Source of the DNA: an uncultured Clostridia bacterium
GTDB taxonomy: Bacteria > Bacillota > Clostridia > TANB77 > CAG-508
Direction: 5' to 3'
Length of the DNA stretch: 64,000 nt
Assembly (NCBI GenBank): GCA_934168305.1
Contig: CAKPNF010000001.1
Span: forward strand, 143,480 to 207,479
Within the stretch, counting starts at the first letter, position 1. Each line of letters opens with the position of its first letter. Below are positions 11,378 to 31,541 of the stretch, piece by piece. The notes below the pieces were generated by a model that saw only the letters and a program-made list of their open reading frames with translations, was not told the DNA's origin and did no database searches. The position numbers and the translations under genes were made by a program.

Positions 11378-11433
11378 GCTTTAAATTTAATCACAAATAA
11401 AAATAGAAAAACGAACATTTTTTTGAAAAAGTA

Positions 11434-11855: not shown

Positions 11856-12875
11856 TTATATATCAGCCAATGGGTTATTTTCAATAGCATCACGAGCTTG
11901 TTCGTTCGAAACATGAGTATAAATTTCAGTAGTAGAAATGCTCTCATGTCCTAAAACTTCTTGTAATGCTCTAATATCAACATTTCCATATTGATACATT
12001 AAAGTAGCAGCAGTGTGTCTCAACTTATGTGTAGAATACTTCTTAGTATCTAATCCTGCAGCCAAAAGTTCTCTATCCACAATATGCTGAACTGTTCTAC
12101 GACTAATTCTTTCTTTTCTCTCACTTAAAAACAATGCATTTTTCGAATTAAGTTTATCTGTTCTAATACCTTCTTTAGGACGTACATTTAAATAGTCATT
12201 TATTGCATTAATACAAGCTTTATTTAAATAAACTGTTCTCTCTTTATTTCCCTTACCAATAACATTCATCTTATTTTCTGAAAAATCAATATCATTAATA
12301 TTTATTCCAACCAATTCAGCTAAACGCATACCACAATTTAAAAATAAAGTAATTATTGCATAATCTCTTTTAGAATTTCTATTATCATCATTTGCCGTAA
12401 CACTTAATAATTTTTTACTATCCTCTAAACTTAGATATTTAGGAAGCCTTCTATCTAGTTTAGGAGTTTCAAGATTTTGTGCAGGATTTATTTCAATTAA
12501 ATTAGCTTTTGCACATAAATAATTAAAGAATACTCTTATACTAGACGCTTTTCTTGCACGAGTTGCAGCTTTACTATTATAATTTGTAGTTAAAAAACTT
12601 AAAAAAGCATGTATATCATCTAATTTAATTTTTTTTATGGTACTAAGTGGAATATCGTTAATAGTTATACTTGAAAAATTTTCTTCGTTTGTCATATTAA
12701 ATCTTATCTTAATAAATCTTAAAAACATTGTTAAATCATAATTATATTCTTTAATTGTATTAGGTGATTTATTTAATATAGTTACTGTATAATCCAAAAA
12801 AGAATTTAAATATTCCGGATTTTCTTCATGATTTATCATATATTTCACACTCCAATTTTTTACATTATATAACAA
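11856..12875 (-). CDS. tyrosine recombinase, XerC/XerD family
   Basis: R...HxxR...Y catalytic pattern (GMRLAEL, HKLRHTAAT, LGHESISTTEIYTHV). The likely start is the internal M at 12839 (MINHEEN). Confidence 0.85.
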   Translation of the reverse strand: MLYNVKNWSVKYMINHEENPEYLNSFLDYTVTILNKSPNTIKEYNYDLTMFLRFIKIRFNMTNEENFSSITINDIPLSTIKKIKLDDIHAFLSFLTTNYNSKAATRARKASSIRVFFNYLCAKANLIEINPAQNLETPKLDRRLPKYLSLEDSKKLLSVTANDDNRNSKRDYAIITLFLNCGMRLAELVGININDIDFSENKMNVIGKGNKERTVYLNKACINAINDYLNVRPKEGIRTDKLNSKNALFLSERKERISRRTVQHIVDRELLAAGLDTKKYSTHKLRHTAATLMYQYGNVDIRALQEVLGHESISTTEIYTHVSNEQARDAIENNPLADI

Positions 12876-13524: not shown

Positions 13525-13577
13525 CAAAATTTTAAAATATATCTTGTATAATTTATAATAAAAGTGTTATACTATGG

Positions 13578-13614
13578 TTGAACGATTGAACGATATTTTG
13601 AACGATTGAACGAT
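13578..13614. repeat. four copies of TTGAACGAT arranged as two overlapping pairs
   Basis: Exact copies at 13578-13586, 13586-13594, 13598-13606 and 13606-13614. Confidence 0.85.
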
Positions 13615-13634
13615 TAAAAATGGAAGTAAGTAAC

Positions 13635-14089
13635 ATGAATGAGAATGAATCAATAGAATTTAAAGAAAATTATACAGAAAAAGTATATAAAGAGATGCAG
13701 GTCTATCAACTTCAAGAAATCCTTACTTACAATCTATTTTTATGAGAATAAAGAGGGTAGAAGCAATAGGAAGTGGCTTAAGAAGAGTAAAATCATATTA
13801 TAATAAAATTGGATTAAATTTCGAGATAGATGTATTACCGTCATCATTTGTTGTAAAATTACCTAAAATATCATTGAATAATGTTGCTATACAAAATAAT
13901 AGTAAAGGTGATATGGATATAATTATAAAATATATTGAAAAAAATGGCTCTATAACAAGGATTAATGCTCAAGCACTAATTAATAAAGAAAAGACAACTA
14001 CCTCAACAATATTAAATAAATTAGTTGAAAATGGTGTTTTGGTTAAAATTGGAAACGGACCAAGTACAAGATATGAAATAAATAAATAA
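13635..14089 (+). pseudogene. remnant of an AlbA_2/Schlafen-type ATP-binding transcriptional regulator (internal deletion)
   Basis: N-terminal NESIEFKENYTEK (AlbA_2-like) is joined out of frame to a C-terminal GSGLRRV...wHTH segment (IIKYIEKNGSITRINAQALI...STRYEINK). The central ~300 aa expected for the family is absent. Confidence 0.45.
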
Positions 14090-17184: not shown

Positions 17185-17191
17185 ACATTGA

Positions 17192-17222
17192 AACAGAGTT
17201 TTATGATTAGAACTCTGTTTTA
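17192..17222 (+). terminator. intrinsic terminator of the aminopeptidase gene
   Basis: AACAGAGTT-N10-AACTCTGTT followed by a T-run. Confidence 0.7.
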
Positions 17223-17290
17223 TCATTTAAAAATAAATCATCATAGTTTGAATAGCTAATTTTGAAAGGGAGGTACTTGAAGCAGGTACT

Positions 17291-17340
17291 TTATATTTTA
17301 CTCCTATCTCTTATTGCACAAAACTTTGATGCCACAACAA
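17291..17340 (+). repeat. R0: isolated 3'-terminal module of the R repeat family, fused to a truncated rhuM
   Basis: TTATATTTTACTCCTATCTCTTATTGCACAAAACTTTGATGCCACAACAA is near-identical to the last 50 nt of R1 and R2. Confidence 0.85.
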
Positions 17341-17660
17341 ACTTAAAAGATGAAACGGTGTGGCTTACACAAGAGCAAATGTCAAAATTGTTTGGAAAGG
17401 CAAAATCTACTATTAATGAGCATATTAAAAATGTATATAAAGAAGGTGAATTAATAGAAAAAGAAACTATGACTAAATTCGAAAATTCCGAATTTGCTGA
17501 TAAACCAACTAATTATTATAATCTAGATATGATAATTTCTGTTGGGTATCGTGTAAAATCACAAAATGGTATTTTATTTAGAAAATGGGCTACTAGGTAT
17601 TAAAAGATTACATGCTAAAAGGTTATGCAGTAAATCAAAAAAGATTAGAATATTTGGAAA
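17341..17660 (+). pseudogene. 5'-truncated, frameshifted paralog of the RhuM N-terminal domain
   Basis: NLKDETVWLTQEQMSKLFGK...YYNLDMIISVGYRVKSQNGILFRKWAT parallels residues ~20-125 of the 23745 ORF. The frame is lost after RKWAT, and the apparent start of track ORF 17262 lies inside the repeat. Confidence 0.8.
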
Positions 17661-17673
17661 TTTATTAAAATTA

Positions 17674-17703
17674 TTGACAAAATAACATATTTCATGCTAT
17701 TAT
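17674..17703 (+). promoter_or_regulatory. sigmaA-type promoter
   Basis: TTGACA (17674-17679), 18-nt spacer, TATTAT (17698-17703). Confidence 0.45.
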
Positions 17704-17739
17704 GAATATAATAATTAAGAACATCGTTGTTTTTAATAA

Positions 17740-18034
17740 ATGTGTTTGTCGCCGCCTCTTTGGGCGACTAACAAATTAGAGAGTGTATAAATTTTCGTGG
17801 CTTACCAGAAATGGTAGGCCTTTGATAATATAAGGAGAAATAGCATTTAATTGTGCAAATACAAGAAAAAGGTTATTATCAAATAACAGTTTGCAATAAA
17901 TAATGAAAGATTAAGAAAAAGAGGTCTAGTATTCCTACTAGACCAATATGAGAAAGTTCATATTTAATATAAATTGCACCGCCACTTGCAAGAACCGCTT
18001 GAGTGGTGGTGCAAGAGTGGAAAAACACACTAAA
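17740..18034 (+). ncRNA. ORF-less promoter-proximal segment with four GC-rich hairpins (candidate structured RNA or decayed cassette)
   Basis: Hairpins GTCGCC-N9-GGCGAC (17756-17776), GGCTTACC-N6-GGTAGGCC (17807-17828), GGTCTAGTA-TTCC-TACTAGACC (17920-17941) and GCACCGCCACT-N14-AGTGGTGGTGC (17976-18011). No ORF of 60 aa or more with an RBS. Confidence 0.3.
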
Positions 18035-18614
18035 ATTAATTTGAATAAAATTGAGTAGAGTAGGGAAGGATATCCATTTTTTTAATGTTGTAGATTTATA
18101 TTTAATATAATAAAAAAGACATAGAAAAATTTTGTGTAAAGTTTTGCAATTAATATATATTTAATTATTATAATTTAAACTTACGAAAATCAATTTTAAG
18201 CCAATTACAATATTGCAATATTAAGTTTGTTGTTGGTAAAATACGGCAAATATAGAGAAATAGACATTTTGAAGCTTTTAGATAAAATTTAGATAGAAGA
18301 TCAGAAATTATAAAAAATTATTGAAAAAAATTTATAATTAAAGATAAAAATTATTTGAACATTAAATTATATAGATAAAATATTTAAATAGCTTAAAATT
18401 GATTTTAAAGCGTTATTAAAATAAGATTATATAAGTAATTGGATAACATTAAATAATATTAAATATGCAAAGTAAAATAATTATATAATAAGTAAATACA
18501 TTCAAGCCAAAGGCTTGAATGTACTGAAATAACTGGGTAGGACTATAATCATAGTCTATATATTTTACTCCTATCTCTTATTGCACAAAACTTTGATGCC
18601 GCGACAGTTTTTTA
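18035..18614 (+). repeat. R1: long AT-rich non-coding repeat (580 bp)
   Basis: Shares its 5' ~110 nt (ATTAATTTGAATAAAATTGAGTAGAGTAGGGAAGGATA...TTTTGTGTAAAGTTTTGCAA), an internal module and its 3' ~80 nt with R2. Stops occur in all frames. Confidence 0.9.
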
Positions 18615-18710
18615 TATGATCATTTGGTATCATAAAATTATTTGTATTATATATTAAAAAATAGCATATAATATTATATATAATAATTTTAGAAAATTAT
18701 TTTGTACTAG

Positions 18711-18740
18711 TTGACAATTCAAACAATAAGATGCTATAAT
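18711..18740 (+). promoter_or_regulatory. sigmaA-type promoter of the ToxN-like/ABC cassette
   Basis: TTGACA (18711-18716), 18-nt spacer, TATAAT (18735-18740). Confidence 0.55.
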
Positions 18741-18744
18741 TATT

Positions 18745-18873
18745 ATATAAATAAATACTGCCTACTAGGAGGCAAAGAGTAAAATACCCTAGACAATCGA
18801 TTAATCAGCCACCCAGTTGGCAAAGAGAAAATACACTGGTGAATAAATTTGGGAGTCTTTGTACTCCCTTTTT
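18745..18873 (+). ncRNA. leader RNA with two imperfect GGCAAAGAG(U)AAAAUAC units and a terminator (candidate type III antitoxin or riboregulator)
   Basis: GGCAAAGAGTAAAATAC at 18770 and GGCAAAGAGAAAATAC at 18819 (49-nt period), each preceded by a short hairpin. GGGAGT-CTTTGT-ACTCCC + TTTTT at 18851-18873 lies immediately before the RBS of the next ORF. Confidence 0.3.
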
Positions 18874-18890
18874 ATTATATAAGGAGTAAG

Positions 18891-19379
18891 ATGGAAATTA
18901 TAGAAGGAAAATTATATTTTATAAAAGATGAATTTATTGAAAAGTATAATCCAAAATATCATTTAATGGAAAATAAAGAAGCTGGAACAAAAAGGCCAAC
19001 TTATTTTTGTTTTAGAGATAAAATTGATAAAAATATATTGTGGTTCGTGCCTATGTCTTCTAAATATGATAAATATTTAAAATTATATAATGATATCAAA
19101 TCTAAAAAAGGAATAGAGCCAAATAACTTTGTGTTTGCAAGAAATTTAGCTGGAAAAAAAGCAGTTTTTCTAATTCAAAATATGTTTCCTACTTTAGAAA
19201 AATACATAGAACAAGAATATAAAAAAGCAGGAATATCAATTAAAGTTCCTAAAGCAGTAAAAGAAGAAATAGATAAAAAAACTAGAGATATTTTTGCACT
19301 TACAAATAGAGGAGTTATAGCTACATTTACTAATTTACCTGAATTTATAAATGATATTAAGAGCGATTATAAGAATTGA
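18891..19379 (+). CDS. ToxN/AbiQ-like type III toxin candidate (162 aa)
   Basis: AAGGAG RBS. N-terminal LYFIKDEFIEKY..., RPTYFCF....ILWFVPMSSKYDKY and FLIQNMFPT blocks resemble the ToxN/AbiQ pattern (FY.I...YI.YL; ..YLAPLTSPK; LKFMIPI). Judged by eye only. Confidence 0.45.
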   Translation: MEIIEGKLYFIKDEFIEKYNPKYHLMENKEAGTKRPTYFCFRDKIDKNILWFVPMSSKYDKYLKLYNDIKSKKGIEPNNFVFARNLAGKKAVFLIQNMFPTLEKYIEQEYKKAGISIKVPKAVKEEIDKKTRDIFALTNRGVIATFTNLPEFINDIKSDYKN

Positions 19380-19400
19380 AAGAAAACGAGGTGGTAGATA

Positions 19401-20999
19401 ATGAAAGAATTGTTAAAAGTAATATCTAAAAAATTATTGTTATGGTCTATTTTTTTTAACACAATATATTCTATAGCAGATTATGGTGAAGCTTTTGCAT
19501 TATCATATTTTGGGACTAGCCCTTTAACACTAGATAAAATAATAAAACTTACTGTTGCAGTTGTAATTGCCTATTTAATAATGCTAATGACAAGTAAAAT
19601 AGCATCATATATAGATAATGTTAATGAAGTGAAGTCAAAAACAGCAATTCAAAAATATTATTTTGAAAAAGTACAATCTATGACAATGGAAAAAATTGCA
19701 GAAACTCATACAGGTTACATACATACATTAATATTGGAAGTTTCGGATTTATTTATGAATTTAGTTTGGCTTTTTGCAATAAGTGTATTACCATTAATTA
19801 TAGGAACAACATCTATACTTCTAATGGTTTGTAAACAATCAATTATAACAGGTATAATTTGTTTAGTAATTGGATTTTTAGCAGTATATTTAAAATATAA
19901 AATGATGAGTAAAAAACAAAAATATGATAAACAAGTTAGAAAAGAAAAATCAAGATACAATGCAACATTTATAGATTTTGTTCAAAATATTATAACAGTA
20001 AGAAAATTAAACATAAATGAATTTTGCAAAAATAAAATAGGTGAAAATAGTGAGCAATATTTAAAAACAACAAAGGTGAACGAAATAAAAAGATCTTATA
20101 TGAATGCAGTATTTACAGGATTAATGAATTTATTATATGTTGTTGTATTAATTAGTACAATAATTATGGTAAAGAATGGTGAAGATGGTTTACCTTATTT
20201 ATTATTTTATATGGCTGCATTAGGAAAATTATATATAGAACTTAATAATATTGTAAAATTAATTGATATTACAGTTAGATTTAAAGGAGCAAAAGAGCAA
20301 TTAGATAACTATTTTAAAGGTAGTACAAAAGTTGAATTAATAGATAAATATAATAATGTTAAACTTACAAATGTTATTTTTTCATATACAAAAGATTCAA
20401 CGAAAATTAAAATACCAGAATTCATTTTAAATAAAGGTGATAAAATTAGCATTATGGGTGAATCCGGTCAAGGAAAAACAACGACAATGAATATTTTAGC
20501 TGGTTTATTTCCTTTATCAGAAGGAGAATTAAAAATAGATGGTAAAACTGTAAAGAATAAAAGACTTGATCTAGTATTTGTATCACAGGAAGTTGACTTG
20601 TTTGATTTAAGCATAAGAGATAATTTATGTTTAGGAAAAGAAATTTCAGAAGAAAAAATAATGCAGTTACTTGATGAAGCAGGATTGATGAATTGGTATA
20701 AAGAATTGCCAAATGGACTTGAAACAATGGTGGGAGAAAAAGGAATAAAATTATCAGCAGGTCAAAAACAAAGATTAAATTTAATTAGAGGAATATTAAT
20801 AGATAAAGAATTATATTTTTTTGATGAGCCTACATCTAATTTAGATGCTTTATCTGAAGAAAAGATAACAAATATGATTGAAAAGTATTTAAAAGATAAA
20901 ACATATGTGATTGTAACACATAGACAAAAATTGAAAGAATTATGTAATAAGCATTATTTATTTGATAATCATATGATGAAAGAGATAATAGCAGTATAA
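19401..20999 (+). CDS. fused permease/ATPase ABC exporter
   Basis: N-terminal 6-TM domain, Walker A GESGQGKTT, signature LSAGQKQR, Walker B LYFFDEPTS. Confidence 0.85.
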   Translation: MKELLKVISKKLLLWSIFFNTIYSIADYGEAFALSYFGTSPLTLDKIIKLTVAVVIAYLIMLMTSKIASYIDNVNEVKSKTAIQKYYFEKVQSMTMEKIAETHTGYIHTLILEVSDLFMNLVWLFAISVLPLIIGTTSILLMVCKQSIITGIICLVIGFLAVYLKYKMMSKKQKYDKQVRKEKSRYNATFIDFVQNIITVRKLNINEFCKNKIGENSEQYLKTTKVNEIKRSYMNAVFTGLMNLLYVVVLISTIIMVKNGEDGLPYLLFYMAALGKLYIELNNIVKLIDITVRFKGAKEQLDNYFKGSTKVELIDKYNNVKLTNVIFSYTKDSTKIKIPEFILNKGDKISIMGESGQGKTTTMNILAGLFPLSEGELKIDGKTVKNKRLDLVFVSQEVDLFDLSIRDNLCLGKEISEEKIMQLLDEAGLMNWYKELPNGLETMVGEKGIKLSAGQKQRLNLIRGILIDKELYFFDEPTSNLDALSEEKITNMIEKYLKDKTYVIVTHRQKLKELCNKHYLFDNHMMKEIIAV

Positions 21000-21111
21000 T
21001 TAATATATACAACAATTTAAAGATCAATATAATTAAGGAAAAGTACATGAAGAAGTGAGAAATAATGTTAAGTCCTAAACAAAATATAAAAAACAAATAG
21101 GAGTTGAAAAT

Positions 21112-22101
21112 ATGAATAGTGATATAAAAATAAGAAAAGTAAATCAAACAGATGCCACTAAATGGTTTAAATTTGTTAATAAGGTATGGAGAAGTGCATA
21201 TATAAATATTTTTCCAGAAGAGGTTTTCTTAGAAAAAGAAAAAAATGTTGAAGAGAAAGAAAAAAATTTTAATAAAAAAATATTTAATGACAACAGAAAT
21301 ATTGCACTAGTTGCAGAATATAAAGGAGAAATTATTGGAATAATGCGTGGTTCAATTAATTCAAATTATGAACATTTTAATGTAAAATATGCAGATTTAA
21401 TTGGATTATATATAGATCCTGATTTTCAAGGAAAAGGAATAGGTAGTAGCTTTAAGAGAATGTTTGAAGAATGGGCAATAAAAAATGGCGCAACTAAATA
21501 TGTGATTGGAGTATTAAAAGACAATCATAAAGCAAGAACTATATATGAAAAATGGGGTGGTAAATTATCAACTTATGAAGAGGATTTTTATAAATTAGGT
21601 GTTGCTTATAAAGAAGTATTTTATACATATGATTTATTTGATGATATAAAATATAAAAATGGAAATTTTAATTTTGCATACAGAGTGTCTGCAATTATGT
21701 ATAATGAAGATGAAACAAGAATTCTTTTATTTTATGGAGATGACATGGAATTCTATATGTTGCCTGGTGGAAAGGTTAAGGAACAAGAAAAAAGCATAGA
21801 TGCAATTAAAAGGGAAATTTATGAAGAATTAGGATATAAAAATTTAGAATTTAAATTTGCAGGAGTAAGTGAAGAATTAATTTCTGAAAAAGATAAGTTC
21901 ATTCAAGAAATAACTATAACATACAAATGCAAATATAATGGCGATATCAAAGAAAAATCTTTTAAAAGTAAAGAATCAGATTGGATTAACTTTAAATGGG
22001 TAGAAATAAATAAGTTAGATGAATTTAATATCTACCCTAGTAAAATTTCATCAATTGTAAATAAAAGTAGTAATCATATAGTAGAAGAAAAAAATAAATA
22101 G
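21112..22101 (+). CDS. GNAT N-acetyltransferase fused to a NUDIX hydrolase domain
   Basis: GNAT motif A (LYIDPDFQGKGIGSS) in the N-terminal half. Nudix box GGKVKEQEKSIDAIKREIYEELGY in the C-terminal half. Confidence 0.8.
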   Translation: MNSDIKIRKVNQTDATKWFKFVNKVWRSAYINIFPEEVFLEKEKNVEEKEKNFNKKIFNDNRNIALVAEYKGEIIGIMRGSINSNYEHFNVKYADLIGLYIDPDFQGKGIGSSFKRMFEEWAIKNGATKYVIGVLKDNHKARTIYEKWGGKLSTYEEDFYKLGVAYKEVFYTYDLFDDIKYKNGNFNFAYRVSAIMYNEDETRILLFYGDDMEFYMLPGGKVKEQEKSIDAIKREIYEELGYKNLEFKFAGVSEELISEKDKFIQEITITYKCKYNGDIKEKSFKSKESDWINFKWVEINKLDEFNIYPSKISSIVNKSSNHIVEEKNK

Positions 22102-22258
22102 TTTTACGATTACTCGTAACAATACTATAATATATGACTGAAATTAAAATACTCCAACAGAAAAAAGACAAAGTAGGAAGGAAAACTCTATTTCAAAACA
22201 GAGCATTTTACAATTTAATAATAACTCGAAAATCAATTAGTTAAGGAGGAAATTCAAT

Positions 22259-22528
22259 ATGGCAGATTACACAATTTATTCAAATGGAATTTGGAAACTG
22301 ATGTTAGAAAAGTACCCAGATTTAAGAGAAGTAGCTATTGAATGTGGATGTGAGAACGACCCACAAAAAGTACAGAAAATAAGACAACAATTTAGCCGTT
22401 CTTGTGAAATTGAAGTATTATCTGAGACAGAAAGAAAATTAGCTAGTAAATTGGTAAGTATAGAATTCTGTGAAATATTCTTTTTAAAGCATATTACATT
22501 TTTTATTAATTTGAATAAAATTGAGTAG
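22259..22528 (+). CDS. hypothetical protein whose 3' end runs into repeat R2 (probably truncated)
   Basis: AAGGAGG RBS. The last 8 codons (INLNKIE*) are encoded by the conserved 5' end of the R repeat, identical to the sequence at 18035-18058. Confidence 0.4.
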   Translation: MADYTIYSNGIWKLMLEKYPDLREVAIECGCENDPQKVQKIRQQFSRSCEIEVLSETERKLASKLVSIEFCEIFFLKHITFFINLNKIE

Positions 22529-23589
22529 AGTAGGGAAGGATAGCCATTTTTTTTAATGTTGTAGATTTATATTTAATATAATAAAAAAGACATAGAAAAA
22601 TTTTGTGCAAAGTTTTACAAAATAAAATTTATTTAATATTTATAATTAAAAGTTTTTAAAATTTGAAAAATAAAATTAAAAAAATATTGCATTTGAAATT
22701 TTAAAATTTTAAGAATTGTAAATTAAAGATTTTAAAATTATAGAATTTTTAAAGCGAACATTTGTTAATTGCCAATTTTAATGTTTGATTTTTAATTTAT
22801 ATGTATTTTAATTATTCTAATTTAAACTTACGAAAATCAATTTTAAGCCAATTACAATATTGCAATATTGATAAATCTAAATATTAAATTTAGATTTATT
22901 TAAGTTGTTTATTGTATAAATATACGATTTTTGTAATTATCTGCAAATACTAAAATAATCTCTAAAAAGCCTGAAATAACAGCTTACGAGAATCAATTTT
23001 AAGGCATTTTAATATTTAAGCCATATAACTTGTTGTTTAGTATTTGGGCAAAATATTGATAATTCTGAGTTTGAGAGATTTTAGATAAAAAATGACCAAA
23101 TTTTTTATACTTATATAGGTATATAAAAAAATGTAAAAATACCTCAAAAAAGCGACGCACGAGAATCGATTTTAAGCCGTTTTTATTTTTAAGGCTTATA
23201 GTTTGTTGTTGGCAAAATACGGCAAATATAGAGAAATAGGCATTTTAAAGATTTTTGTAAAATTTATATAAATATAATATGAAATAAAAATTATTAAGTA
23301 ATAAAATTAAATTTTAAATAGAAAAATTATTTAGATGTAAAATTATAAGGATAAATTATAAAACAGATTTAAAATTGATTTTAGAAATAAATATCTTGGA
23401 CTAGACTAACATTATTACAAGTAATAAATTATAAAGTAATAATGTTAGTCAAACGATAGCTAATAAATAGCTAGTAAAGCTGATAAGGCTAGTAGTTACA
23501 AGAACTTGTGGGTAGGACTCTGAAAGGAGTTCTATTATTTTGCTCCTATCTCTTATTGCGCAAAACTTTGATGCCGCGACAGTTTTTTA
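22505..23589 (+). repeat. R2: long AT-rich non-coding repeat (1085 bp)
   Basis: Full-length family member with three internal ACGAGAATCGATTTTAAGCC-type modules (22.83, 22.99, 23.16 kb), a 14-bp perfect hairpin at 23404-23450 and a conserved 3' module ending GATGCCGCGACAG. Confidence 0.9.
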
Positions 23590-23623
23590 CAAAAACATAA
23601 AAATAAATAATTTAAAAAAGGTA

Positions 23624-23652
23624 TAGACAAATATTTGTTCTTGTTGTAAAAT
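23624..23652 (+). promoter_or_regulatory. putative promoter of the RhuM-Fic cassette
   Basis: TAGACA, 17-nt spacer, TAAAAT. Confidence 0.35.
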
Positions 23653-23744
23653 ATATTCAATAGTTCAAAAATACTAGAAAGTTAAAACATATAAGTACCA
23701 ATAGATATACTAAGAACTAAATTTTATATAAAGGATGTGTTCTT

Positions 23745-24699
23745 ATGGACGAAAAAAGAAATGAAATTATTTTATTTGAAAACCAAGGAGTAAAATTAGA
23801 AGTAAACTTAAAAGATGAAACTGTGTGGCTTACACAAAAACAAATGGCAGAATTATTTGGGAAGGATAGAAGAACAATCACTCGTCATATTCAAAATATT
23901 TATAAAGATGAAGAATTAGTAGAAAGTTCAGTATGCTCATTTTTTGAGCATACTGCTGAAGATGGCAAAAAATATAATGTACAATATTACAATTTAGATA
24001 TGATTATTTCTATTGGATATAGAGTAAATAGCAAACAAGGTATTTTGTTTAGAAAATGGGCAACAAACATACTAAAAGACTACATGATAAAAGGATATGC
24101 TGTAAATCAAAAAAGACTAGAGTACTTAGAAAAAACTATAAAACTTATAGATATTGCAAACCGCATTGATGAAAGACTCGAAGGAAATGATGCAAAAGAA
24201 ATATTAAAAGTAATTGGAGGATATTCAAAAGCATTAGACTTATTAGATGATTATGATCATAGAACTTTAAAGAAAATTGAAGGAAATATAGACGATAGGA
24301 AAATTAAATACCAAGAATGTATAAATATAATTAATAAGTTAAGATTTAATGAAGAAAGTTCGCTTTTTGCAGTTGAAAGAGATAAAGGATTAGAATCAAT
24401 TATTGGTAACATTTATCAAAGCTTTGCACGGACAAGATATTTACAAGAGTATAGAAGAAAAAGGAGCAAATTTCTTATATTTAATAGTAAAAAATCATGT
24501 ATTTGCAGATGGCAATAAAAGAATTGCAGCAACTTTGTTTATATATTTTCTAAATTTTTACGGAATATTATATAAAAATGGTAAACAAGTAATTGATAAT
24601 AATACATTAACGGCTCTTACTTTATTAATTGCTGAATCGAATCCAAAGGAAAAAGAAGTAATTATAGATTTAGTGATGAATTTTTTGAATAATGAATAA
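23745..24699 (+). pseudogene. RhuM-family N-domain fused to a Fic/DOC domain, frame-broken as assembled
   Basis: ORF 23745-24518 carries the RhuM-like region. The overlapping +1 frame from 24430 gives GQDIYKSIEEKGANFLYLIVKNHVFADGNKRIAATLF (Fic motif HxFxDGNKR). The break is at the in-frame CGG at 24429-24431. Confidence 0.7.
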
Positions 24700-24716
24700 A
24701 ATTGGAGGTAAACAAT

Positions 24717-24863
24717 ATGTTAAATTATGAGTATACTCCAGAAAATGTAATAATTAGAGATAAAAATGATTTGAAAAGCAAGTTGCAACAAGGTTTAGAT
24801 GATATGAAATCAAATAAAACATATTCTTTAGATGAAGTTTTTAAGCATATTGATAATTTATAA
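24717..24863 (+). CDS. small ORF (48 aa), possible antitoxin-like partner
   Basis: Strong RBS (GGAGGTAAACAATATG). It is not in the supplied track because it is under 60 aa. The track's antisense ORF 24725-24925 overlaps it. Confidence 0.4.
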   Translation: MLNYEYTPENVIIRDKNDLKSKLQQGLDDMKSNKTYSLDEVFKHIDNL

Positions 24864-24879
24864 ATAGGAGTGAAATATA

Positions 24880-25404
24880 ATGAAAGTATATATAATAAGA
24901 CATGGAGAAGTCCCACATAACGCATTAAAACAATATAATAATGAAAATGAAGATTTAACTAAAAAAGGTATAAAACAGGCTGAAGAATTAAGAGAAAAAA
25001 TAAAAATAATTGATTATGATATTATAATTTGTTCTCCTTTAATTAGAGCAAAGCATACAGCTAAAATTATAAATGTTAAAGAAAAAGAAATACTTATTGA
25101 TAATAGATTAGAAGAAAGAAATCCCGGTAGTTTGTCTGGACAATCTCTAGATGTAACAAATAGAGACGAATACTGGAACTATTATACTGAAATACAATAT
25201 GGAACAAGTGAAAATATACAAGAATTCTTTAAAAGAATATATAACTTTTTAGATGAATTAAAAATAAAAGACTATAAAAATGTTCTAGTAGTAGCTCACA
25301 GTGGAGTATCAAAAGCATTTGATGGTTATTTTGAAGGTATAAAAAATGGTTTGTTCTTAGATAGAGGATTAAAAAATTGTGAAATAAAAAAATATGAATT
25401 CTAA
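24880..25404 (+). CDS. histidine phosphatase (phosphoglycerate mutase-like) family protein
   Basis: RHGE motif (IIRHGEVPHN) and a downstream catalytic His (VVAHSG). Confidence 0.85.
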   Translation: MKVYIIRHGEVPHNALKQYNNENEDLTKKGIKQAEELREKIKIIDYDIIICSPLIRAKHTAKIINVKEKEILIDNRLEERNPGSLSGQSLDVTNRDEYWNYYTEIQYGTSENIQEFFKRIYNFLDELKIKDYKNVLVVAHSGVSKAFDGYFEGIKNGLFLDRGLKNCEIKKYEF

Positions 25405-25410
25405 AAAATC

Positions 25411-25890
25411 AGTAGAGTAGGGGGATAGCACTTTTTTTGATGCTGTAAATTTATATTTAATATAAATATTATATATATATAAAACAAAAAAGATATAGAA
25501 AAATTTGGCGCAAAGTTTTTACAAAATAAAAATCTGATTTCTAATTTATAATTTTTTAAATAAAAAAATAAAACTAGAAAAAATATTGAATTTGAAATTT
25601 TAAAAATTATAAATTAAAGATTTTAAATTTATAGATTTTTTTTAAATCGAACATTTGTTAATTGCAAATTTTAATGTTTGGTTTTTAATTTATATGTATT
25701 TTTATTATTATAATTTAAACTTACGAAAATTAATTTTAAGCTAATTATAATATTTCAATATTAAATTTATTCATCCAAATATTAAATTTAGATTTATTTA
25801 AGTTGTTTATAAAAATTTTAGTTATATAGTTTGTTGTTGGTAAAATACGGCAAATATAGAGAAATAGGCATTTTTTGATAAAAAATTAAT
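25411..25890 (+). repeat. R3: 3'-truncated member of the R repeat family (~480 bp)
   Basis: Begins AGTAGAGTAGGGGGATAGCAC and shares the AAATCGAACATTTGTTAATTGC and TAGTTTGTTGTTGGTAAAATACGGCAAATATAGAGAAATAGGCATTTT blocks. It lacks the terminal CTCCTATCTC...GATGCC module. Confidence 0.85.
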
Positions 25891-25935
25891 AATTTAATAT
25901 AGAATAATTATAGATTTAGAAGGAGAAAAAATGTT

Positions 25936-26414
25936 ATGGATTTAAAAATTAAAACAGAAAAAGAAGAATTTCACGGGAGAACCTGTGGAATAATTAAGCA
26001 AGAAAATAATTTTTTAATCATGAGAGTAAATCAATCATCTTATTATCATATACCAGGTGGGCATATAGAAATTGGAGAAGATTCAGAACAAGCTATTATC
26101 CGTGAAATAAAAGAAGAAATTGATTGCGATGTTCAAGAAACAGATTTGTTTGCAATACAAGAGAATTTTTGGACAAGAAATAATAAAAAATGTCATGGAA
26201 TAGAATTTTATTATATAATAAAACCTAAGCAACAATTGCAAATAAAAGACTATCAAAGAATTGAAAATGATAAGAGTGAAAAAAACTATTAGATTTTAAA
26301 TGGGTTACTCCAGAAGAACTAAAAGATATAGATTTAAGACCTAGTAATATTAAAGATATGATAATAAATGGAGAATATCTTAAAGGTTTGTCACATATTG
26401 TAAAAAGAGGATGA
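25936..26414 (+). pseudogene. NUDIX hydrolase, frame-broken at an A7 run as assembled
   Basis: Nudix box PGGHIEIGEDSEQAIIREIKEEIDC. The ORF stops at 26292, but LLDFKWVTPEELKDIDLRPSNIKDMIING... continues in the -1 frame from the A7 run at 26279-26285. Confidence 0.7.
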
Positions 26415-26452
26415 ATGAATATAGTAAAGCGATGAAATTACATTTATATATA

Positions 26453-26481
26453 TTGAAAGTTATGTAAATATATGATATAAT
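26453..26481 (+). promoter_or_regulatory. sigmaA-type promoter
   Basis: TTGAAA (26453-26458), 17-nt spacer, TATAAT (26476-26481). Confidence 0.5.
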
Positions 26482-26583
26482 TAAAGTGTTTTTAGCCAAT
26501 AAGCTAATTAATTTTTATAATCTCCTTTACGGAGTAGACATATATAACCCAAAACAACGTTTTATAAAAAGGAGAGTGATATA

Positions 26584-27249
26584 ATGCAGTTATTGACAAA
26601 CGTCACATTAAAGGCAGAGCCTTTTATCAACGAAAACGAAGCTACATTCAATGCAGAATGCAAAGCAATTAGAACAAAATGCGATTTGCAATTAGAATAC
26701 GATGGAAGAGATGTTTTAGTTACTTTTCCACCATATTCTCAGATTGAAATAACTAAATGGTGTCAATTAATCTTAGGTCTATTTCACGAACAATCTAATT
26801 TTAAACAGCTTTTATTTAAAACATTCTCAAGTCTACGGTGCAAGACAAAGCTTGAATGCATTTTCTTTGAAGCAAATGGTGTTATAATTTGTGTTAAGAA
26901 AGATTCTAATCCCTATGAGCTTATGAGAGGTTATTTTTGTGAACAAGGTTATGTAGTTTTAGATAATGATACTGAACAGCAAATTAATAATAGAAATGAA
27001 AAACTTCTAAAATTACGTATGTTCGTTTATCAAATATTTATTCAGGAAAGTAAAAACTCTGATCTTAAAGCTAAAAGGAAACACATTTTTTTCTTATCAG
27101 ATGAAGAAGAACAAGCTTACAACCTGAAAGAATATAAAATCTATAATAAGAGATTCGAAGAGTACCTCCAAGATTTTGAATTAGATTCTGAATCTTCAGC
27201 AGAAAGCAAAGAATTGCTTAATCTGCTAAAAAAACAATTACTGCATTAA
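26584..27249 (+). CDS. hypothetical protein (221 aa), noticeably less AT-rich than its surroundings
   Basis: AAGGAGAG RBS and a long ORF followed by a strong terminator. No recognised motif. Confidence 0.55.
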   Translation: MQLLTNVTLKAEPFINENEATFNAECKAIRTKCDLQLEYDGRDVLVTFPPYSQIEITKWCQLILGLFHEQSNFKQLLFKTFSSLRCKTKLECIFFEANGVIICVKKDSNPYELMRGYFCEQGYVVLDNDTEQQINNRNEKLLKLRMFVYQIFIQESKNSDLKAKRKHIFFLSDEEEQAYNLKEYKIYNKRFEEYLQDFELDSESSAESKELLNLLKKQLLH

Positions 27250-27254
27250 AAACA

Positions 27255-27290
27255 AAAAACTGATTTACTATTCTTGTAAATCAGTTTTTT
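27255..27290 (+). terminator. intrinsic terminator
   Basis: AAAAACTGATTTAC-TATTCTT-GTAAATCAGTTTTT. Confidence 0.8.
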
Positions 27291-27319
27291 ACTATAAAAT
27301 GAATTTGAAGGAGATTATT

Positions 27320-28400
27320 GAAGAAAGTAGGGGGGAAGAACCCTATTTCCAAGAATATGTAATTTTAATAAAATTAAAAAAATTTAAAATAAAAAAAGAA
27401 ATAGGTAGTAAAATATTTTGTGCAATGTTCTTAAATTATTTTTAGAAAAAATATAAAATATATAATTTAATAAAATAATTTTAATTTAAATTTTAAATTA
27501 AAATTAAAAAAATTACAAATTAAAGATTTTAAAATTTTGTTTGGTAAAAAATCTTAAAACGAACATTTGATTATTACAAATTGATTTATAAATTTTAATT
27601 ATAATCTTAGATTTTAAATTATATTTATAAAGTCTGAAAATCAATTATAATTAATTTAAATTATTAACTAATAATTATCTGTTTATGATTTTAAAAATTA
27701 ATTTTGATGCTTTAAACTTATAGTATGCAATTTAAATTTGCAGATTTTAATTAAACTTATGGAATTATAATTATATGTAAGATCTTTTGAAATTAGTTAA
27801 AATAATGACTTGTGTGAATCGTTTTTAAGGTATTTTAATAAAACAGTCATATAGTTTGTTGTCTGGTATTTTAGCAAAATAATGATAATTCTAAGATTTA
27901 GCAATTTTTAGTAGTAAATTGTTTGACTTTATAGATATACAATAATAATCAAAAATACCTCAAAAAAGCGACGCACGAGAATCGATTTTAAGCCGTTCCT
28001 AAAAATTAGGCATATAGTTTGTTACCTGCAAAATACGGCAAATATGGAGATTCTGGGGTTTTGAGGATTTTTGATAAAAATTTGAGATAGGATCAGAAAT
28101 TATAAAAAATAATTAAAGTATAAAATTAAAATTTAAAGATTAGAAATAATTAAACATCAAATTATATAGATAAAATATTTAAGGAGCTAAAAAAAGATTT
28201 TAAAGCGATATAAAATTAAAGTAATATAAGTTGCCAAAATAAAACAAAATAATTGTATAATAAGTAAGTACATATAAAGCTAAAGGCTTGATAGTGCTGA
28301 ATTTGCTAGGAGGGACTTGGAACATAGTTCTAATATTTTACCCCTATACCTTTTTGCACAAAACTTTGATTTTGTGCAATGTTTGATGCTGTATTTTATA
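27320..28400 (+). repeat. R4: long AT-rich non-coding repeat (~1080 bp), most diverged member
   Basis: Shares a 47-nt identical block with R2 (AAAAATACCTCAAAAAAGCGACGCACGAGAATCGATTTTAAGCCGTT; 27951-27997 vs 23137-23183), the internal modules, and a variant 3' module that ends in a perfect TTGCACAAAA-CTTTGA-TTTTGTGCAA hairpin. Confidence 0.85.
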
Positions 28401-28555
28401 TTGTATTTCAGTTCTTTCCTATACTAACATTTGCTTTCACCCGTTTCCTCCGAACTTCTGTAATTGAATCATCTATTATATTTGTATCTAAAATAAAACC
28501 ATAAATACATTCTTCTATCATACTCTAAAGAGAATTCTTTTTATTTATATTTAGT

Positions 28556-29356
28556 TTATTTTTTTATTTTTTCTATATATTTAATATGCTCTTTTTTTGT
28601 ATCATCATTTGTAAACATATATTTTGTTAATTTATCACTAAAATTTCTAATCTGACTATTTGAAAAAACAATTCCATATTTTTTATAATCTTCATTTAAA
28701 GTATTTTGAAGTTGATGGCGTTTTATAACTCTTACATTTGGTTTACTTACAGTTATATTTTTTAATTCACAACGTTCACTAAATACAATATATGATCTAA
28801 AAATATTTACATCTTTTATTTCAAGAATACTAGCTAAAGCTTTAATATGATTCCTATTTTGAATAATTGGATTGTAAAAACCATTCTTACTTTTATATAT
28901 AACTTGTTTCCAATTTTTTTGAGTTTCATTTCCAAAAATCCAGCCACTATATCCTTTAGACTCTATAACAAAAATACCATATTTGTTTATTAGCACTGAA
29001 TCTATTTCACTTGTATTATACTCGTTTGGGATATATAAATTTATTAAAACCTTTTTGTATTCAGCTTGATCATTTAAAATCTTCCATGTTAAGTATTCCG
29101 CAATATAGCCTTTATTAAAAAGTATTGAAAAGTAAGATTTCTTTGTTATTAATTTATAAAAAGTTTTATCATATTCTTTTTTTCCAGATACTGTTTCTAT
29201 TATTATCCCAAGCATAAAACCTATTATCATAAGTGGAAAAGTTATTGGAAATAATACAATTATTAATAATAGTGTTACAAGTTTTATTTTGTGATAATTT
29301 TTTAGATTATACCATTCTGATTTCAAATATCTTTTTAATTCATTAAAAAAACCCAT
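28556..29356 (-). CDS. membrane-anchored NERD (nuclease-related domain) protein
   Basis: N-terminal TM pair followed by EIDSVLINKYGIFVIESKGYSGWIFG...KNWKQ, the NERD core pattern. Confidence 0.75.
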   Translation of the reverse strand: MGFFNELKRYLKSEWYNLKNYHKIKLVTLLLIIVLFPITFPLMIIGFMLGIIIETVSGKKEYDKTFYKLITKKSYFSILFNKGYIAEYLTWKILNDQAEYKKVLINLYIPNEYNTSEIDSVLINKYGIFVIESKGYSGWIFGNETQKNWKQVIYKSKNGFYNPIIQNRNHIKALASILEIKDVNIFRSYIVFSERCELKNITVSKPNVRVIKRHQLQNTLNEDYKKYGIVFSNSQIRNFSDKLTKYMFTNDDTKKEHIKYIEKIKK

Positions 29357-29567
29357 ATTATATAATTCCCTTACATATTTTATATTATCTTTTGTTTGTT
29401 ATAGTATATCATATTATTAACAAATTTTGTCAATAAAAATGTAGTAATTTATTTAAATTTAGTGCTAAAATTATATAAAATATTACATTTTTTCATACAA
29501 ATAATGTGAATGGTATCAAAAACAAAGCACTGCAATATTGCAGTACTTTGCCATAGTGATAATTTAA

Positions 29568-31541
29568 TTATTCAGAAAATAACTTATCCAAGTCACTTTC
29601 ATCCAAAATACCTTTTTCTAATAATGCATCAACCAATTTGTCTAATAACACTTTGTTACTATTCAAAATATTTTTTGCATATTCAGAAGCTTCTTGCAAA
29701 AGCTCTTTTCTTTTTTGATTGATCATATCAATTGTTTTTTCATTCATCATATGATAATTACTATTTTCAATATATGTTGAATAGTCATTATCATTATTCA
29801 TTGCGTAATTGCAAATCATAGCATATGCTTCTTTATTAACATACTCTAAATCTGAACTTGCACCTGAATTAATGTCAGAAGTAAATAATTCCTCAGCTAT
29901 TCTTCCAGCTAATGATCCAGCAAAAGACGCAATAAGATATTCACGATTTGAATTAATGGTTATTTCATCAGACAAATCATCGAATACAGTTACTCCTAAA
30001 TATCCTTCTGCAGGCATGATAGATACTGCAATACCTTTTGTATCTTTTAAAATATTTGAAGATAATTTCCAAACCAAATAATGTCCTGCTTCATGATAAG
30101 CAGTAGCTTTTTTTGAGTTATCATCCATATTATTGTATTTTTGAAAATTTATATCAAAATTTTCAAGAATACATTCTCTGGTAACTTCTTTAAGTCCTTT
30201 TTCTTTGGCAATTACCATTGCAGTATCAATAAGATCATTGGTTCGATCTGGGTTTTTTGTGGTTTTATTAAAACAGCTAGATATTAATATTGCATATTCA
30301 ACCATCTCTTTGCTTATTGTTACACCATGAAATTTTTCATGTGCTTTTATGGCATTTTTAAGCATAGGATATACTTCTTTTGATTTTGGCTCTTTTACAA
30401 CCACCTTTTTAAATCTTCGCTTAAAGGCAGAATCTCTTGAAATGATTCTTTCATATTCTTCTTCTGTAGTTGCTCCGATAACCTTAGCTTTTGGACTAGC
30501 AAGAAATGGTTTTAATGCATTCGACATATCATTTTCTCCTTTTGAAGAAACCTCTCCTGCACCAATTACCATGTGTAATTCATCAATAAAAAGAATTACA
30601 TTTTCGTGCTTTTCAAGATATTCAACTAAAAGCTTGAAACGTTCTTCTGCCATTCCTCGATACATTGTTCCTGCTACGGAAGAATTAACATTAAGCTGAA
30701 GTACAATATTTTCTTTTAAATCTTCTGGACAGTTTCCATTTGCAATATCATATGCAATTTTTTCTGCAATTGATGATTTTCCTACTCCTGCTTCTCCAAC
30801 AAGAACAACGTTTTTTTTGCTTCTTTTCTGTAATGTTCTCATTATGTCTCTACATTCTTTATCTCTTCCAAGAATTTCACACTCAGGAACACCTTTATAT
30901 TTGCTGCTGAGAACAGAAACAAAATCAGAAAGTGCTTTTGGAATTTTTTCAAAATTGTCTGAAACTTCATTTTCGTCACTTTCAACTTCGTCAATTCCAT
31001 ATATTTGATTTAAAAGATCTACATACTCAAAAAGACCATCCAAGTATACACCATTATTTTTTAGTATTGTAAGCGGTTCTTTTGGCATATCATCAGCAAA
31101 GCTTAATAAGATATCCTCTGAATAAACAGGAATTTCAATATTATCATTGTTCTCTTCATTTTGCTCCATTGATATTAAATCAATAATTGTCTTTACCAAA
31201 ATATCATAAACTTCTTCCGTAAGAACCGTTTTAATTGGTTCTTGATCATCTGGTAAATTAATCTGGAAATTTTTTTCTGTTCCATCAAGAACATCTGTAT
31301 TTTTTAACCGTTTAAGTTCTCTGTCACAATCCTGTATTATATTTTTATATGGATTCTGTCCAATTATTGTTGCACATAAGAAATCATACAAAATACTGTT
31401 TTTTTCTTCTAAAAGTGCTTTTAGCAAGATAATGGAATTAATCCGTTTTAATCCAAATTTTTCTTGGATACTGTTCATATCTAAAAATAAATCTTGCATT
31501 GTTTCATCGAAATATGTTTCATATCTTGGTTCTTTACTCAT
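29568..31541 (-). CDS. Clp-type AAA+ (D1-like) ATPase fused to a C-terminal FtsH-like M41 zinc protease domain, no TM segment
   Basis: Clp_N-like N-terminus. Walker A VLVGEAGVGKSS, Walker B ILFIDELH, ClpA/B-type sensor region (AFKRRF). C-terminal HEAGHYLV plus GASSDLEYVN, as in peptidase M41. Confidence 0.8.
   Translation of the reverse strand: MSKEPRYETYFDETMQDLFLDMNSIQEKFGLKRINSIILLKALLEEKNSILYDFLCATIIGQNPYKNIIQDCDRELKRLKNTDVLDGTEKNFQINLPDDQEPIKTVLTEEVYDILVKTIIDLISMEQNEENNDNIEIPVYSEDILLSFADDMPKEPLTILKNNGVYLDGLFEYVDLLNQIYGIDEVESDENEVSDNFEKIPKALSDFVSVLSSKYKGVPECEILGRDKECRDIMRTLQKRSKKNVVLVGEAGVGKSSIAEKIAYDIANGNCPEDLKENIVLQLNVNSSVAGTMYRGMAEERFKLLVEYLEKHENVILFIDELHMVIGAGEVSSKGENDMSNALKPFLASPKAKVIGATTEEEYERIISRDSAFKRRFKKVVVKEPKSKEVYPMLKNAIKAHEKFHGVTISKEMVEYAILISSCFNKTTKNPDRTNDLIDTAMVIAKEKGLKEVTRECILENFDINFQKYNNMDDNSKKATAYHEAGHYLVWKLSSNILKDTKGIAVSIMPAEGYLGVTVFDDLSDEITINSNREYLIASFAGSLAGRIAEELFTSDINSGASSDLEYVNKEAYAMICNYAMNNDNDYSTYIENSNYHMMNEKTIDMINQKRKELLQEASEYAKNILNSNKVLLDKLVDALLEKGILDESDLDKLFSE

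Follow-up and report, generated by a model that had tools for sequence, protein, structure and literature searches.

Probable tandem integration of integrase-less cassettes, each with a long non-coding arm, at a dif-like terminus site in an uncultured Clostridia bacterium

A stretch of 64,000 nucleotides from an uncultured Clostridia bacterium (GenBank assembly GCA_934168305.1, contig CAKPNF010000001.1, positions 143,480 to 207,479; the whole stretch is called the window here and numbered from its first letter) carries four long non-coding blocks, R1 to R4, and a short remnant, R0, which alternate with small cassettes of plus-strand accessory genes and end at a perfect palindrome. We consider it probable that this array is a stack of integrative cassettes without an integrase of their own, standing in tandem at a single-recombinase, dif-like site at the replication terminus, with R being the attachment arm. 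The anatomy of the array, its position at the terminus, the conservation of the site across species, its linkage to a xer-like gene, the sharing and shuffling of cassettes between species and the occurrence of the site as a phage attP carry this reading. A preliminary description of the window had already recognized the array; the four blocks and the remnant were recovered at the coordinates it gave, except that the start of R0 was corrected to ~17270 in order to include its hairpin, but it had overlooked the core at the ends of the R blocks, the palindrome in which the array ends, the location at the terminus and the Xer-like recombinase. The palindrome is 26 bp long and consists of two 10-bp arms around a 6-bp spacer, and this 10-6-10 arrangement is the classic core layout of tyrosine recombinases.

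17270..17340, plus strand: R0, attL-like junction, with hairpin 17270-17292, left context, left arm and spacer 17314-17329 and degenerate right arm TGCCACAACA
18035..18596, plus strand: R1, ending in left arm and spacer 18581-18596
22505..23571, plus strand: R2, with arm half-site 22601-22610, LexA-box-like motif 22755-22766, A-blocks at 22832, 22988 and 23161, hairpin 23511-23536, left arm and spacer 23556-23571
25411..25890, plus strand: R3, truncated, with 5' module, LexA-box-like motif at 25648 and degenerate A-block, without 3' module or core
27320..28353, plus strand: R4, with arm half-site 27416-27425, LexA-box-like motif at 27560, A-block at 27977 and hairpin, followed by the palindrome
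28354..28379, no strand: dif-like core, perfect palindrome TTGCACAAAA-CTTTGA-TTTTGTGCAA, attR-like end that closes the array
11856..12875, minus strand: Xer-like tyrosine recombinase of 339 aa, candidate cognate enzyme of the site

R0, R1 and R2 end in TTGC(A/G)CAAAA-CTTTGA, followed by a degenerate right arm, TGCC(G/A)C(G/A)ACA. R4 ends in the same 16 nt of left arm and spacer, but it alone among the four then runs on into the perfect right arm TTTTGTGCAA. At the three junctions, TTGCACAAAA-CTTTGA is followed by TGCCGCGACA or TGCCACAACA, i.e. one arm and the centre are kept while the other arm is degenerate, and the junctions are identical through exactly the left arm and spacer and diverge beyond. 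The functional ends of R are at the core (18596, 23571 and 28379), and the sequence TGCCGCGACAG beyond it is the degenerate right arm with which the next cassette starts. The 3' module TTGCACAAAACTTTGATG, allowing at most 1 mismatch, had 4 copies (17314, 18581, 23556 and 28354), all on the plus strand, against 0.31 expected; the shared 3' end that had been ascribed to the blocks in general holds for R0, R1, R2 and R4 but not for R3. Exact arm 10-mers were confined to the R ends, the palindrome and the 5' modules of R2 and R4, and the full palindrome occurred only once in the 64-kb window.

The window, part of a metagenome-assembled scaffold (ENA ERZ28615578 scaffold_19, 307 kb), has a G+C content of ~25%, and housekeeping genes (pepF, rho, yabPQ/divIC, prfB, secA and valS) flank the array. 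The maximum of the cumulative GC skew and the switch of gene orientation from plus to minus both fall at ~28.4 kb, i.e. at the palindrome, and such a skew peak with converging genes is the signature of a replication terminus. We infer that the palindrome serves as the chromosome-dimer resolution site, in the manner of dif. No Bacillus-type dif was found in the 64-kb window, nor was a tRNA or tmRNA gene found as an integration target.

In order to see the site in other species, one genome per species was scanned with the left context, left arm and spacer as the query. At least 116 site loci were obtained, all from metagenome-assembled genomes (MAGs) of gut 'Clostridia bacterium' or 'Clostridium sp. 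CAG' with 21-30% G+C (comparison loci and contigs outside the window bear L-numbers). The preliminary description was to fall if R were unique to its locus; the R family is instead widespread across species. Among the matches listed, most loci had the full palindrome and about one third had hybrid sites, the right arms of which fell into a few recurrent degenerate classes. At least 10 loci had two sites 1.2-3.2 kb apart, nine of them a hybrid site followed by the palindrome and one (L070) two hybrids. The arm sequence was unchanged across more than 100 species, whereas the spacer differed by lineage (CTTTGA, GTTCCA, GTTTCA, CTATCA), which fits protein-bound arms around a crossover region and not a terminator stem. 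An ORF (open reading frame)-free, R-like gap preceded the palindrome (median 905 nt), including loci without cassettes, and even the minimal host version, the interval between xer and the site in L081, retained an A-block; decayed R fragments were also common (L062). The terminus position was likewise conserved: GC skew was positive on the left and negative on the right in 15 of the 16 palindrome-ending species loci with enough flank, whereas it stayed positive in 10 of 10 hybrid-ending loci, and in 45 species loci rho followed the site downstream, encoded on the opposite strand, with its end ~100-200 nt away in those inspected (L158, L168, L169, L146). No paper containing the site sequence was found in the searchable literature library.

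The anatomy of R was derived from an alignment of 108 copies together with motif counts. In 5' to 3' order, R comprises a G-rich box that resembles a terminator and includes a T-run, the arm in inverted copy, a motif similar to a LexA box, one or more A-blocks, a hairpin and the core. The inverted arm copy, TTTTGTGCAA(A/T)GTT, lies ~60 nt past the G-rich box and 0.6-1.0 kb upstream of the core, and was present at 34 of 80 cores and at none in the opposite orientation. The LexA-box-like motif CGAACATTTGTT showed a similar polarity relative to the core (65 plus versus 3 minus, median 633 nt upstream), as did the A-block, AAAAAACGACGCACGAGAATCGATTTTAAGCCGTTTTTAT...CATATAGTTTGTTGTC, with 1-3 copies per R (154 in the same orientation versus 7 in the opposite one; 140 of 146 within 1.3 kb upstream of the core, with modes at 300-400 and 100-150 nt). 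The hairpin has a variable but paired stem and is followed by TATATTTTACTCCTATCTCTT and then the left arm. Since the blocks are fixed in order and spacing across species, R is better read as a functional module than as a graveyard of decayed sites, an idea that degenerate site-like pieces in L071 and L062 had prompted.

Within the window, the R blocks are 480-1085 nt long with 15-21% G+C and contain no plus-strand ORF of at least 50 aa, in agreement with the AT-rich, non-coding interiors first described. The conserved 5' end was also reproduced, the motif AAATTTTGTGCAAAGTTTT occurring in 4 copies (18127, 22598, 25501 and 27413) against 0.40 expected, and the 47-nt identity between R2 and R4 proved to be the A-block GAGAATCGATTTTAAGCC, with 5 window copies, all within R, against 0.18 expected. 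On the other hand, the ending INLNKIE*, shared by adjoining ORFs, had been taken to imply that the repeats replaced gene ends; the 19 nt encoding it belong to the R2 family in other species too, so that it gives no sign of such a replacement. Regarding CGAACATTTGTT, 5 matches with at most 1 mismatch were found in the window against 0.56 expected, three in R2, R3 and R4 and two (11405-11460) bracketing the promoter -35 of a yneA-like SOS cell-division inhibitor gene that lies tail-to-tail with xer. The motif resembles the Firmicute LexA (Cheo) box, a lead from sequence that suggests a possible SOS link for R.

Two local rearrangements were observed in R copies of other loci. In L186, a 15-bp hairpin, GACTAACATTATTAC...GTAATAATGTTAGTC, has its 17-nt loop inverted relative to eight relatives (minus strand; alignment A1 columns 962-978), which is a small inversion between inverted repeats. 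In L248 (12120-12180), a hairpin-bearing insertion of ~60 nt splits the A-block, elsewhere highly conserved, between CGACGCAC and AGAATCAATTTTAAG.

The recombinase gene at 11856-12875 is the sole recombinase gene of the window and lies 4.4 kb upstream of R0, divergent from the array; no integrase domain or homologue was found inside the array itself (17291-28400). Its product has Phage_integrase (Pfam, 9e-42) and SAM-like N-domains with intact catalytic motifs as aligned with the nearest PDB entry, XerD 1a0p (1.4e-39), while the match to the XerH structure reached only 7.7e-15. Its NCBIfam scores were all below cut-off (XerC 235 bits, XerD 219, XerA 205 with a cut-off of 220, XerS 161 with a cut-off of 267), and the scores obtained did not place it as an orthologue of a named single Xer (XerS, XerH or XerA). 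In uncluttered genomes, orthologues with 60-88% identity stand upstream of the palindrome, divergent from it, at a distance of 129 nt in L081 and of 1.3-3.2 kb in L071, L229, L242, L244, L245, L247 and L248. The perfect palindrome formed by the arms implies one recombinase, not XerC and XerD together. Between xer and R0, a remnant of a Schlafen/AlbA_2-HATPase_c_4 gene (13500-14089), judged against the intact 428-aa cassette gene in L131, has its first ~20 codons (from 13636) joined to its last 115 codons, which means that this interval also holds decayed cassette cargo. No R or core is left beside it; neither in the interval from xer to R0 nor to the right of the palindrome did a search for remnants of R give more than low-complexity noise.

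The R blocks separate four cassettes, which are listed below with the toxin-antitoxin genes of the second.

17339..18034, plus strand: cassette 1, decayed, with a 5'-truncated RhuM fragment (17339-17660), behind which stand a promoter and four GC-rich hairpins
18597..22504, plus strand: cassette 2, starting with degenerate right arm TGCCGCGACAG, with type III toxin-antitoxin, ABC transporter 19401-20999, GNAT-NUDIX 21112-22101 and 89-aa ORF 22259-22528
~18740-18870 (repeat RNA region) and 18891-19379 (CptIN toxin, 2e-38), plus strand: type III toxin-antitoxin of cassette 2
23572..25410, plus strand: cassette 3, starting with right arm TGCCGCGACAG, with RhuM-Fic (frameshifted, 23745-24699), 53-aa ORF and histidine phosphatase 24880-25404
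25891..27319, plus strand: cassette 4, with NUDIX 25936-26292 and a 221-aa protein, p221 (26584-27249)

Contig L099, from the same species, contains the M29 peptidase gene and terminator at 99% identity to the window; an R4-family R of 885 nt and then the palindrome follow, and cassettes are absent. In human-gut contigs L174 and L185-L188 the xer regions are 75-80% identical, and the cassettes are 84-98% identical and differ in order and number: L186 has RhuM-Fic-HisPhos only; L188 has an intact RhuM cassette and then CptIN-ABC; L187 has a truncated CptIN, RhuM-Fic-HisPhos, p221 and the palindrome; and in L174 an R4-like hybrid site and RhuM lie downstream of p221. Thus a cassette array with very long separators, as first described, was borne out, the same cassettes occurring in different orders and groupings in other species and being absent from L099. 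Individual cassettes could be followed further: L188 holds the intact RhuM version of cassette 1 (98.8% identical over 17339-17660), cassette 2 adjoins hybrid sites in L070, L187 and L188, copies of cassette 3 with 88-95% identity occur in L186, L185, L187, L188 and L144, and the p221 cassette occupies another position in L174 and L187. A full-length counterpart of R3 is present in L046 and L186; loss of the R3 core in the window fused cassettes 3 and 4. R2 and R4 are 67.5% identical to each other, whereas R2 is 91-92% identical to the copies in L155 and L069 and R4 is closest to L054 (79.6%) and L163, indicating that they are separate travelling lineages and not products of local duplication.

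The same site is used by phage. The attP of viral contig L031, with phage genes on both sides, consists of int, p93 (93 aa), a strong promoter, an A-block, a hairpin, the left arm, the spacer and a degenerate arm. In ~20 species loci, one or two paralogous integrases and a small protein stand directly upstream of R and the palindrome, and elements duplicate at least 60 nt of the left context. Mirror hybrid sites, with a diverged left arm, CTTTGA and a perfect right arm, were found 5-6 kb on the rho side of the palindrome in L239, L244 and L247, and these, together with a phage in L046/L067, show that the site is used from both sides, by elements of opposite polarity as well. As a separate observation, L090, L125, L159, L072 (~3 kb upstream of the palindrome) and L031 (6853-8158) contain one or two tandem Xer-paralogue integrases with a conserved ~90-aa protein, for which Pfam and PHROG gave no match; it could be a directionality or Xer-activation factor.

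These observations would be explained as follows. A circular unit would carry an attP-like site made of R, left arm, spacer and degenerate right arm, and would recombine with the chromosomal palindrome, by which the unit is inserted. Insertion would leave a hybrid site (left arm, spacer and degenerate arm) on the xer side and rebuild the perfect palindrome on the rho side, preceded by the unit's own R, from which it follows that R is the attachment arm of each unit. Repeated insertions would give the order R0, cassette, R1, cassette, R2, cassette, R3 (core lost), cassette and R4-palindrome. The likely enzyme is the Xer-like recombinase at 11856-12875, perhaps aided or replaced in trans by phage-encoded paralogues. 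The degenerate arm would stabilize the insert. R itself would act in cis, most likely as an accessory and insulating region that binds accessory proteins and stops cassette transcription before it reaches the core.

Several observations weigh against this explanation. R0 is only ~70 nt long compared with the full 885-nt R of the empty same-species allele L099, so that the array is not a simple insertion into an allele of the L099 type. The L046/L067 phage uses the site from the other (rho) side without an A-block, indicating that R is not required by every element. Many xer-anchored metagenome loci have no recognizable site within 10 kb, for which arrays that are long or cores that have diverged could be the reason. 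Nor was any ongoing movement detected: nearly identical strains from other samples carry the same array, and look-ups with exact proteins (M29, CptIN and p221) recovered nothing but that array, in a few samples and often broken at R, and showed no gain or loss at the strain level. Finally, the uniqueness of the palindrome and the absence of canonical XerC/XerD and of a Bacillus-type dif hold for 64 kb only.

A bolder form of the explanation, less likely than not and put forward tentatively, is that an entire clade of uncultured low-GC gut Clostridia has a single undescribed Xer-type recombinase, by which chromosome dimers are resolved at a perfectly palindromic dif, that this dif doubles as an integron-like platform for the capture of defence and toxin-antitoxin cassettes, and that the ~1-kb R is an obligatory, SOS-responsive cis module. 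R would then combine an extra recombinase half-site, a LexA operator and the A-blocks as accessory sites, which would free the movement of cassettes from the cell-division control of dif.

Among the alternatives, we regarded it as unlikely that R is a plus-strand non-coding RNA gene ending at its hairpin and T-tract, the 3' end of which is targeted and reconstituted by the elements, as happens to genes for tRNA and tmRNA. Nearly every core does have a hairpin and then TATATTTT before it, and its pairing is kept despite stem changes (mean minimum free energy (MFE) -9.1 versus -5.5 for shuffles); three short hairpins in the last 150 nt of R show compensatory changes in L064; and R1, folded as single-stranded DNA, pairs its two arm copies and has a better fold than shuffled sequences (z = -4.1). 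In phage L031, the R-like arm has a strong promoter, TTGACA-18-TATAGT, directed into it, the LexA-box-like motif could serve as an operator, and the hairpin inserted in the L248 A-block and the duplication of the left context would also suit an RNA gene. However, Rfam 15 gave no match at gathering score in the 64 kb and none in R at E up to 1; at that level the only hit within 17000-28700 was a chance-level RefA9 (E 0.28), which lies outside R, in the terminator region that follows p221 (27225-27288). RNAalifold found no consensus structure for the A-block (69 sequences) or the 3' module (107 sequences), and in the R2 family (nine members) the covariation term was unfavourable (+4.94), with double changes in only 5 of 165 pairs. 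One promising long-range helix, predicted by RNAalifold to join ATAGAGAAATAGG in the extension of the A-block to CCTATCTCT in the left context, came without covariation and was rejected, as complementarity was no higher for matched than for mismatched partners (7.45 versus 7.46, permutation 1113/2000). In addition, the A+T content of R is 79-85%, its length ranges from 0.13 to 1.1 kb, a conserved promoter was not found, and the hairpins are equally compatible with plain terminators. The conserved blocks are better read, as far as sequence can indicate, as putative DNA-level protein-binding sites, with hairpins that would be terminators shielding the core from cassette transcription. The lack of a match to any known RNA class or element, remarked on at the outset, was confirmed for R with Rfam and, using R2 in BLAST, with cultured phages (INPHARED) and plasmids (PLSDB).

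It also seems rather improbable that R is an element of the chromosome terminus, i.e. a set of polar sites by dif for replication-termination, segregation or translocase-loading proteins, which cassettes copied as the flank of their target. The presence of R-like DNA before the palindrome in nearly all species, cassette-free loci included, the A-block kept at the minimal host site L081 and the strict polarity of the blocks relative to the site would all be expected, and the G-rich 5' box (GAGTAGGGAAGG, GTAGGAGAGAGGGG) presumably recalls FtsK/SpoIIIE orienting motifs. A k-mer strand-skew search of the window for KOPS/SRS-like motifs was dominated by coding-strand bias. Yet a fork trap or translocase guide would be mirrored, while the blocks are one-sided (7 inverted versus 154); precise integration and excision would not copy a host flank, yet the L031 attP carries an A-block; and R lineages travel between species with the cassettes.

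Very unlikely, in our estimate, is an integron-like arrangement in which R is a giant attC, with the inverted arm copies at its ends pairing in single-stranded DNA as in attC or the folded CTX phage attP. The occurrence of the inverted arm copy upstream of the left arm in one orientation only, the pairing of the two ends both in the single-stranded MFE fold of R1 and by RNAalifold in the R2 family, and a recombinase divergent from co-oriented cassettes agree with it. However, every junction has a double-stranded core with a degenerate right arm, which suffices for integration at dif of the known kind discussed below; the recombinase has no integron-integrase signature (TIGR02249 110 bits versus a cut-off of 265; PRK15417 69 versus 435); pairing past the 10-nt arm is poor as read from the sequence; the 5' half-site is absent from the L031 attP and from L081; and the cassettes have promoters of their own. 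Least probable of all, and largely refuted already, is local tandem duplication with homologous recombination among R copies and no site-specific mobility, the palindrome being a terminator between convergent genes: the palindrome did score as terminator-like, the R copies are homologous enough for unequal crossing-over, R is commonly met as decayed fragments and identical arrays occur in other samples, but the arm is invariant where a terminator stem would covary, the spacer varies while the arms do not, the junctions share exactly left arm and spacer, R2 and R4 are each nearer to copies of other species than to one another, cassettes are far more alike between species than core genes, and the core is common to a phage attP.

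By comparison with known systems, the tandem integration of integrative mobile elements that exploit Xer (IMEXs) at a dif site appears to be the closest frame. The IMEX arrays at dif of Vibrio cholerae (CTX/TLC/VGJ), Neisseria (GGI) and Enterobacter (EludIMEX-1) are also integrase-less and stand in tandem at the terminus site, and the IMEX attP keeps one arm and the central region with the other arm divergent (PMC5357621). Here, too, one arm and the centre are kept, the other arm is degenerate and one intact site is regenerated at one end; the location at a terminus site, the lack of an own recombinase and the dif-mimicking attachment site would, from sequence, place the units among IMEXs. LME-1, which inserts at the dif site of the single recombinase XerL, leaves behind a second, modified site, and its degenerate arm has been shown to stabilize the insert (PMC9765430), as has been proposed for GGI and TLC (PMC5357621). 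Unlike IMEXs, the array has perfectly palindromic arms and a host in an uncultured Clostridia lineage, its units are cassettes that hold one to four genes and measure 1.2-5 kb rather than phages or large islands, and each unit has a conserved 0.4-1.1 kb non-coding arm with ordered motifs. We know of no IMEX counterpart of this arm.

Single-recombinase Xer/dif systems (XerS/difSL, XerH/difH, XerA, XerL/dif with LME-1; PMC1914069, PMC5241119, PMC2958812, PMC9765430) likewise have one Xer-family recombinase and an inverted-arm terminus site. The gene is linked to the site as for xerS, the site is exploited by elements that leave a modified second site as for LME-1, and the arms are conserved with a central region varying between lineages. 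However, the site sequence is unrelated, the recombinase falls below the NCBIfam cut-offs for XerC, XerD, XerS and XerA, and the long conserved flank and multi-cassette arrays seen here are undescribed for these systems.

With integrons the array shares a recombinase gene beside, and divergent from, co-oriented small accessory cassettes with related sites between them, the sharing and reordering of cassettes between species and a possible SOS link through the LexA-box-like motif. It is not an integron in the strict sense, failing on IntI, attC and Pc: the IntI signature is absent; the separators are 0.5-1.1 kb compared with 57-141 bp for attC, with no consensus fold and only the 10-nt inverted arm copy linking the ends of R; integron cassettes are mostly promoterless and use a common Pc, whereas those here have their own promoters; and a dif-like palindrome at the terminus serves as the primary site. 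The pdif (dif) modules of Acinetobacter (PMC6449649, PMC11705084) are also small accessory modules, including toxin-antitoxin genes, with Xer-type boundaries, shuffled among replicons. They are plasmid-borne with full, inverted XerC/D sites, whereas the sites here are direct, hybrid, chromosomal and at the terminus, with a long non-coding arm; the junctions are direct repeats of left arm and spacer, and the inverted element in R is a lone half-site. At the plasmid resolution sites cer and psi, an Xer core is also flanked one-sidedly by accessory DNA, a possible analogue of the polar R blocks. That accessory DNA is ~180 bp long, is needed in cis and binds PepA with ArgR or ArcA; its sequence and that of R are not similar.

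Regarding the cargo, four GC-rich hairpins in the 3' part of cassette 1 (17661-18034), including 17738-17760, 17790-17815, 17923-17944 and 17968-18008, stand downstream of a strong promoter-like site, TTGACA-18-TATTAT (17674-17703). No ORF or Rfam match was found there, and this part may be a small RNA, or what remains of an RNA gene, that of a type III antitoxin or another. Upstream of CptIN in cassette 2, a perfect promoter (18711-18740), two ~45-nt repeats, GGCAAAGAG(T/A)AAAATAC, and a terminator (18851-18868) were found, and by this layout 18740-18870 is the predicted RNA antitoxin of a type III toxin-antitoxin. RhuM-Fic in cassette 3 (23745-24699) is split by a frameshift into two overlapping ORFs, with intact fused homologues in L085, L150 and others, and the NUDIX ORF of cassette 4 is stop-interrupted, with an apparent continuation to ~26415 (region 25936-26420); both look like pseudogenes. 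Most cassettes had been credited with their own promoters, and strong promoter-like sites do precede them at 17674, 18711, 23624 and 26453, but such sites are not enriched overall (105 versus 101.9 in shuffles). R0 and R2 each have a terminator-like hairpin at the 3' end; R4 has one in its 5' box, on the minus strand only. The two-site units of other species carry ToxN (twice), CptIN, RhuM, Schlafen/AlbA_2 ATPase, a deaminase, DUF4143 ATPase and RibD_C.

To the right of the palindrome lie the following genes.

28556..31541, minus strand: NERD nuclease-like protein and AAA/M41 FtsH-like protein (weak STAND/NACHT-like hits), between the palindrome and rho
31796-33160: rho, on the other side of this pair from the palindrome

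The pair is possibly a defence island inserted from the right (rho) side; no hybrid site or second-site remnant was found near rho or around 28556-31541.

If our explanation is true, the array would reveal a new Xer/dif pair with a single recombinase, belonging to a group of gut Firmicutes that is large, abundant and uncultured. It would also be the first integron-like cassette platform in Firmicutes, built on a dimer-resolution site; Firmicutes are reportedly without integrons, according to Cury et al. in 2016. The core TTGCRCAAAA-N6-TTTTGYGCAA would provide a handle with which the terminus can be located and cassettes mined in thousands of MAGs, and the ordered, unexplained blocks of R, such as the 47-nt A-block and the LexA-box-like motif, would be targets in the search for new accessory factors of tyrosine recombination. 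For the organisms themselves, the terminus would be a hotspot at which gut species exchange defence-type genes, among them those for type III toxin-antitoxin, RhuM/Fic, Schlafen and NUDIX.

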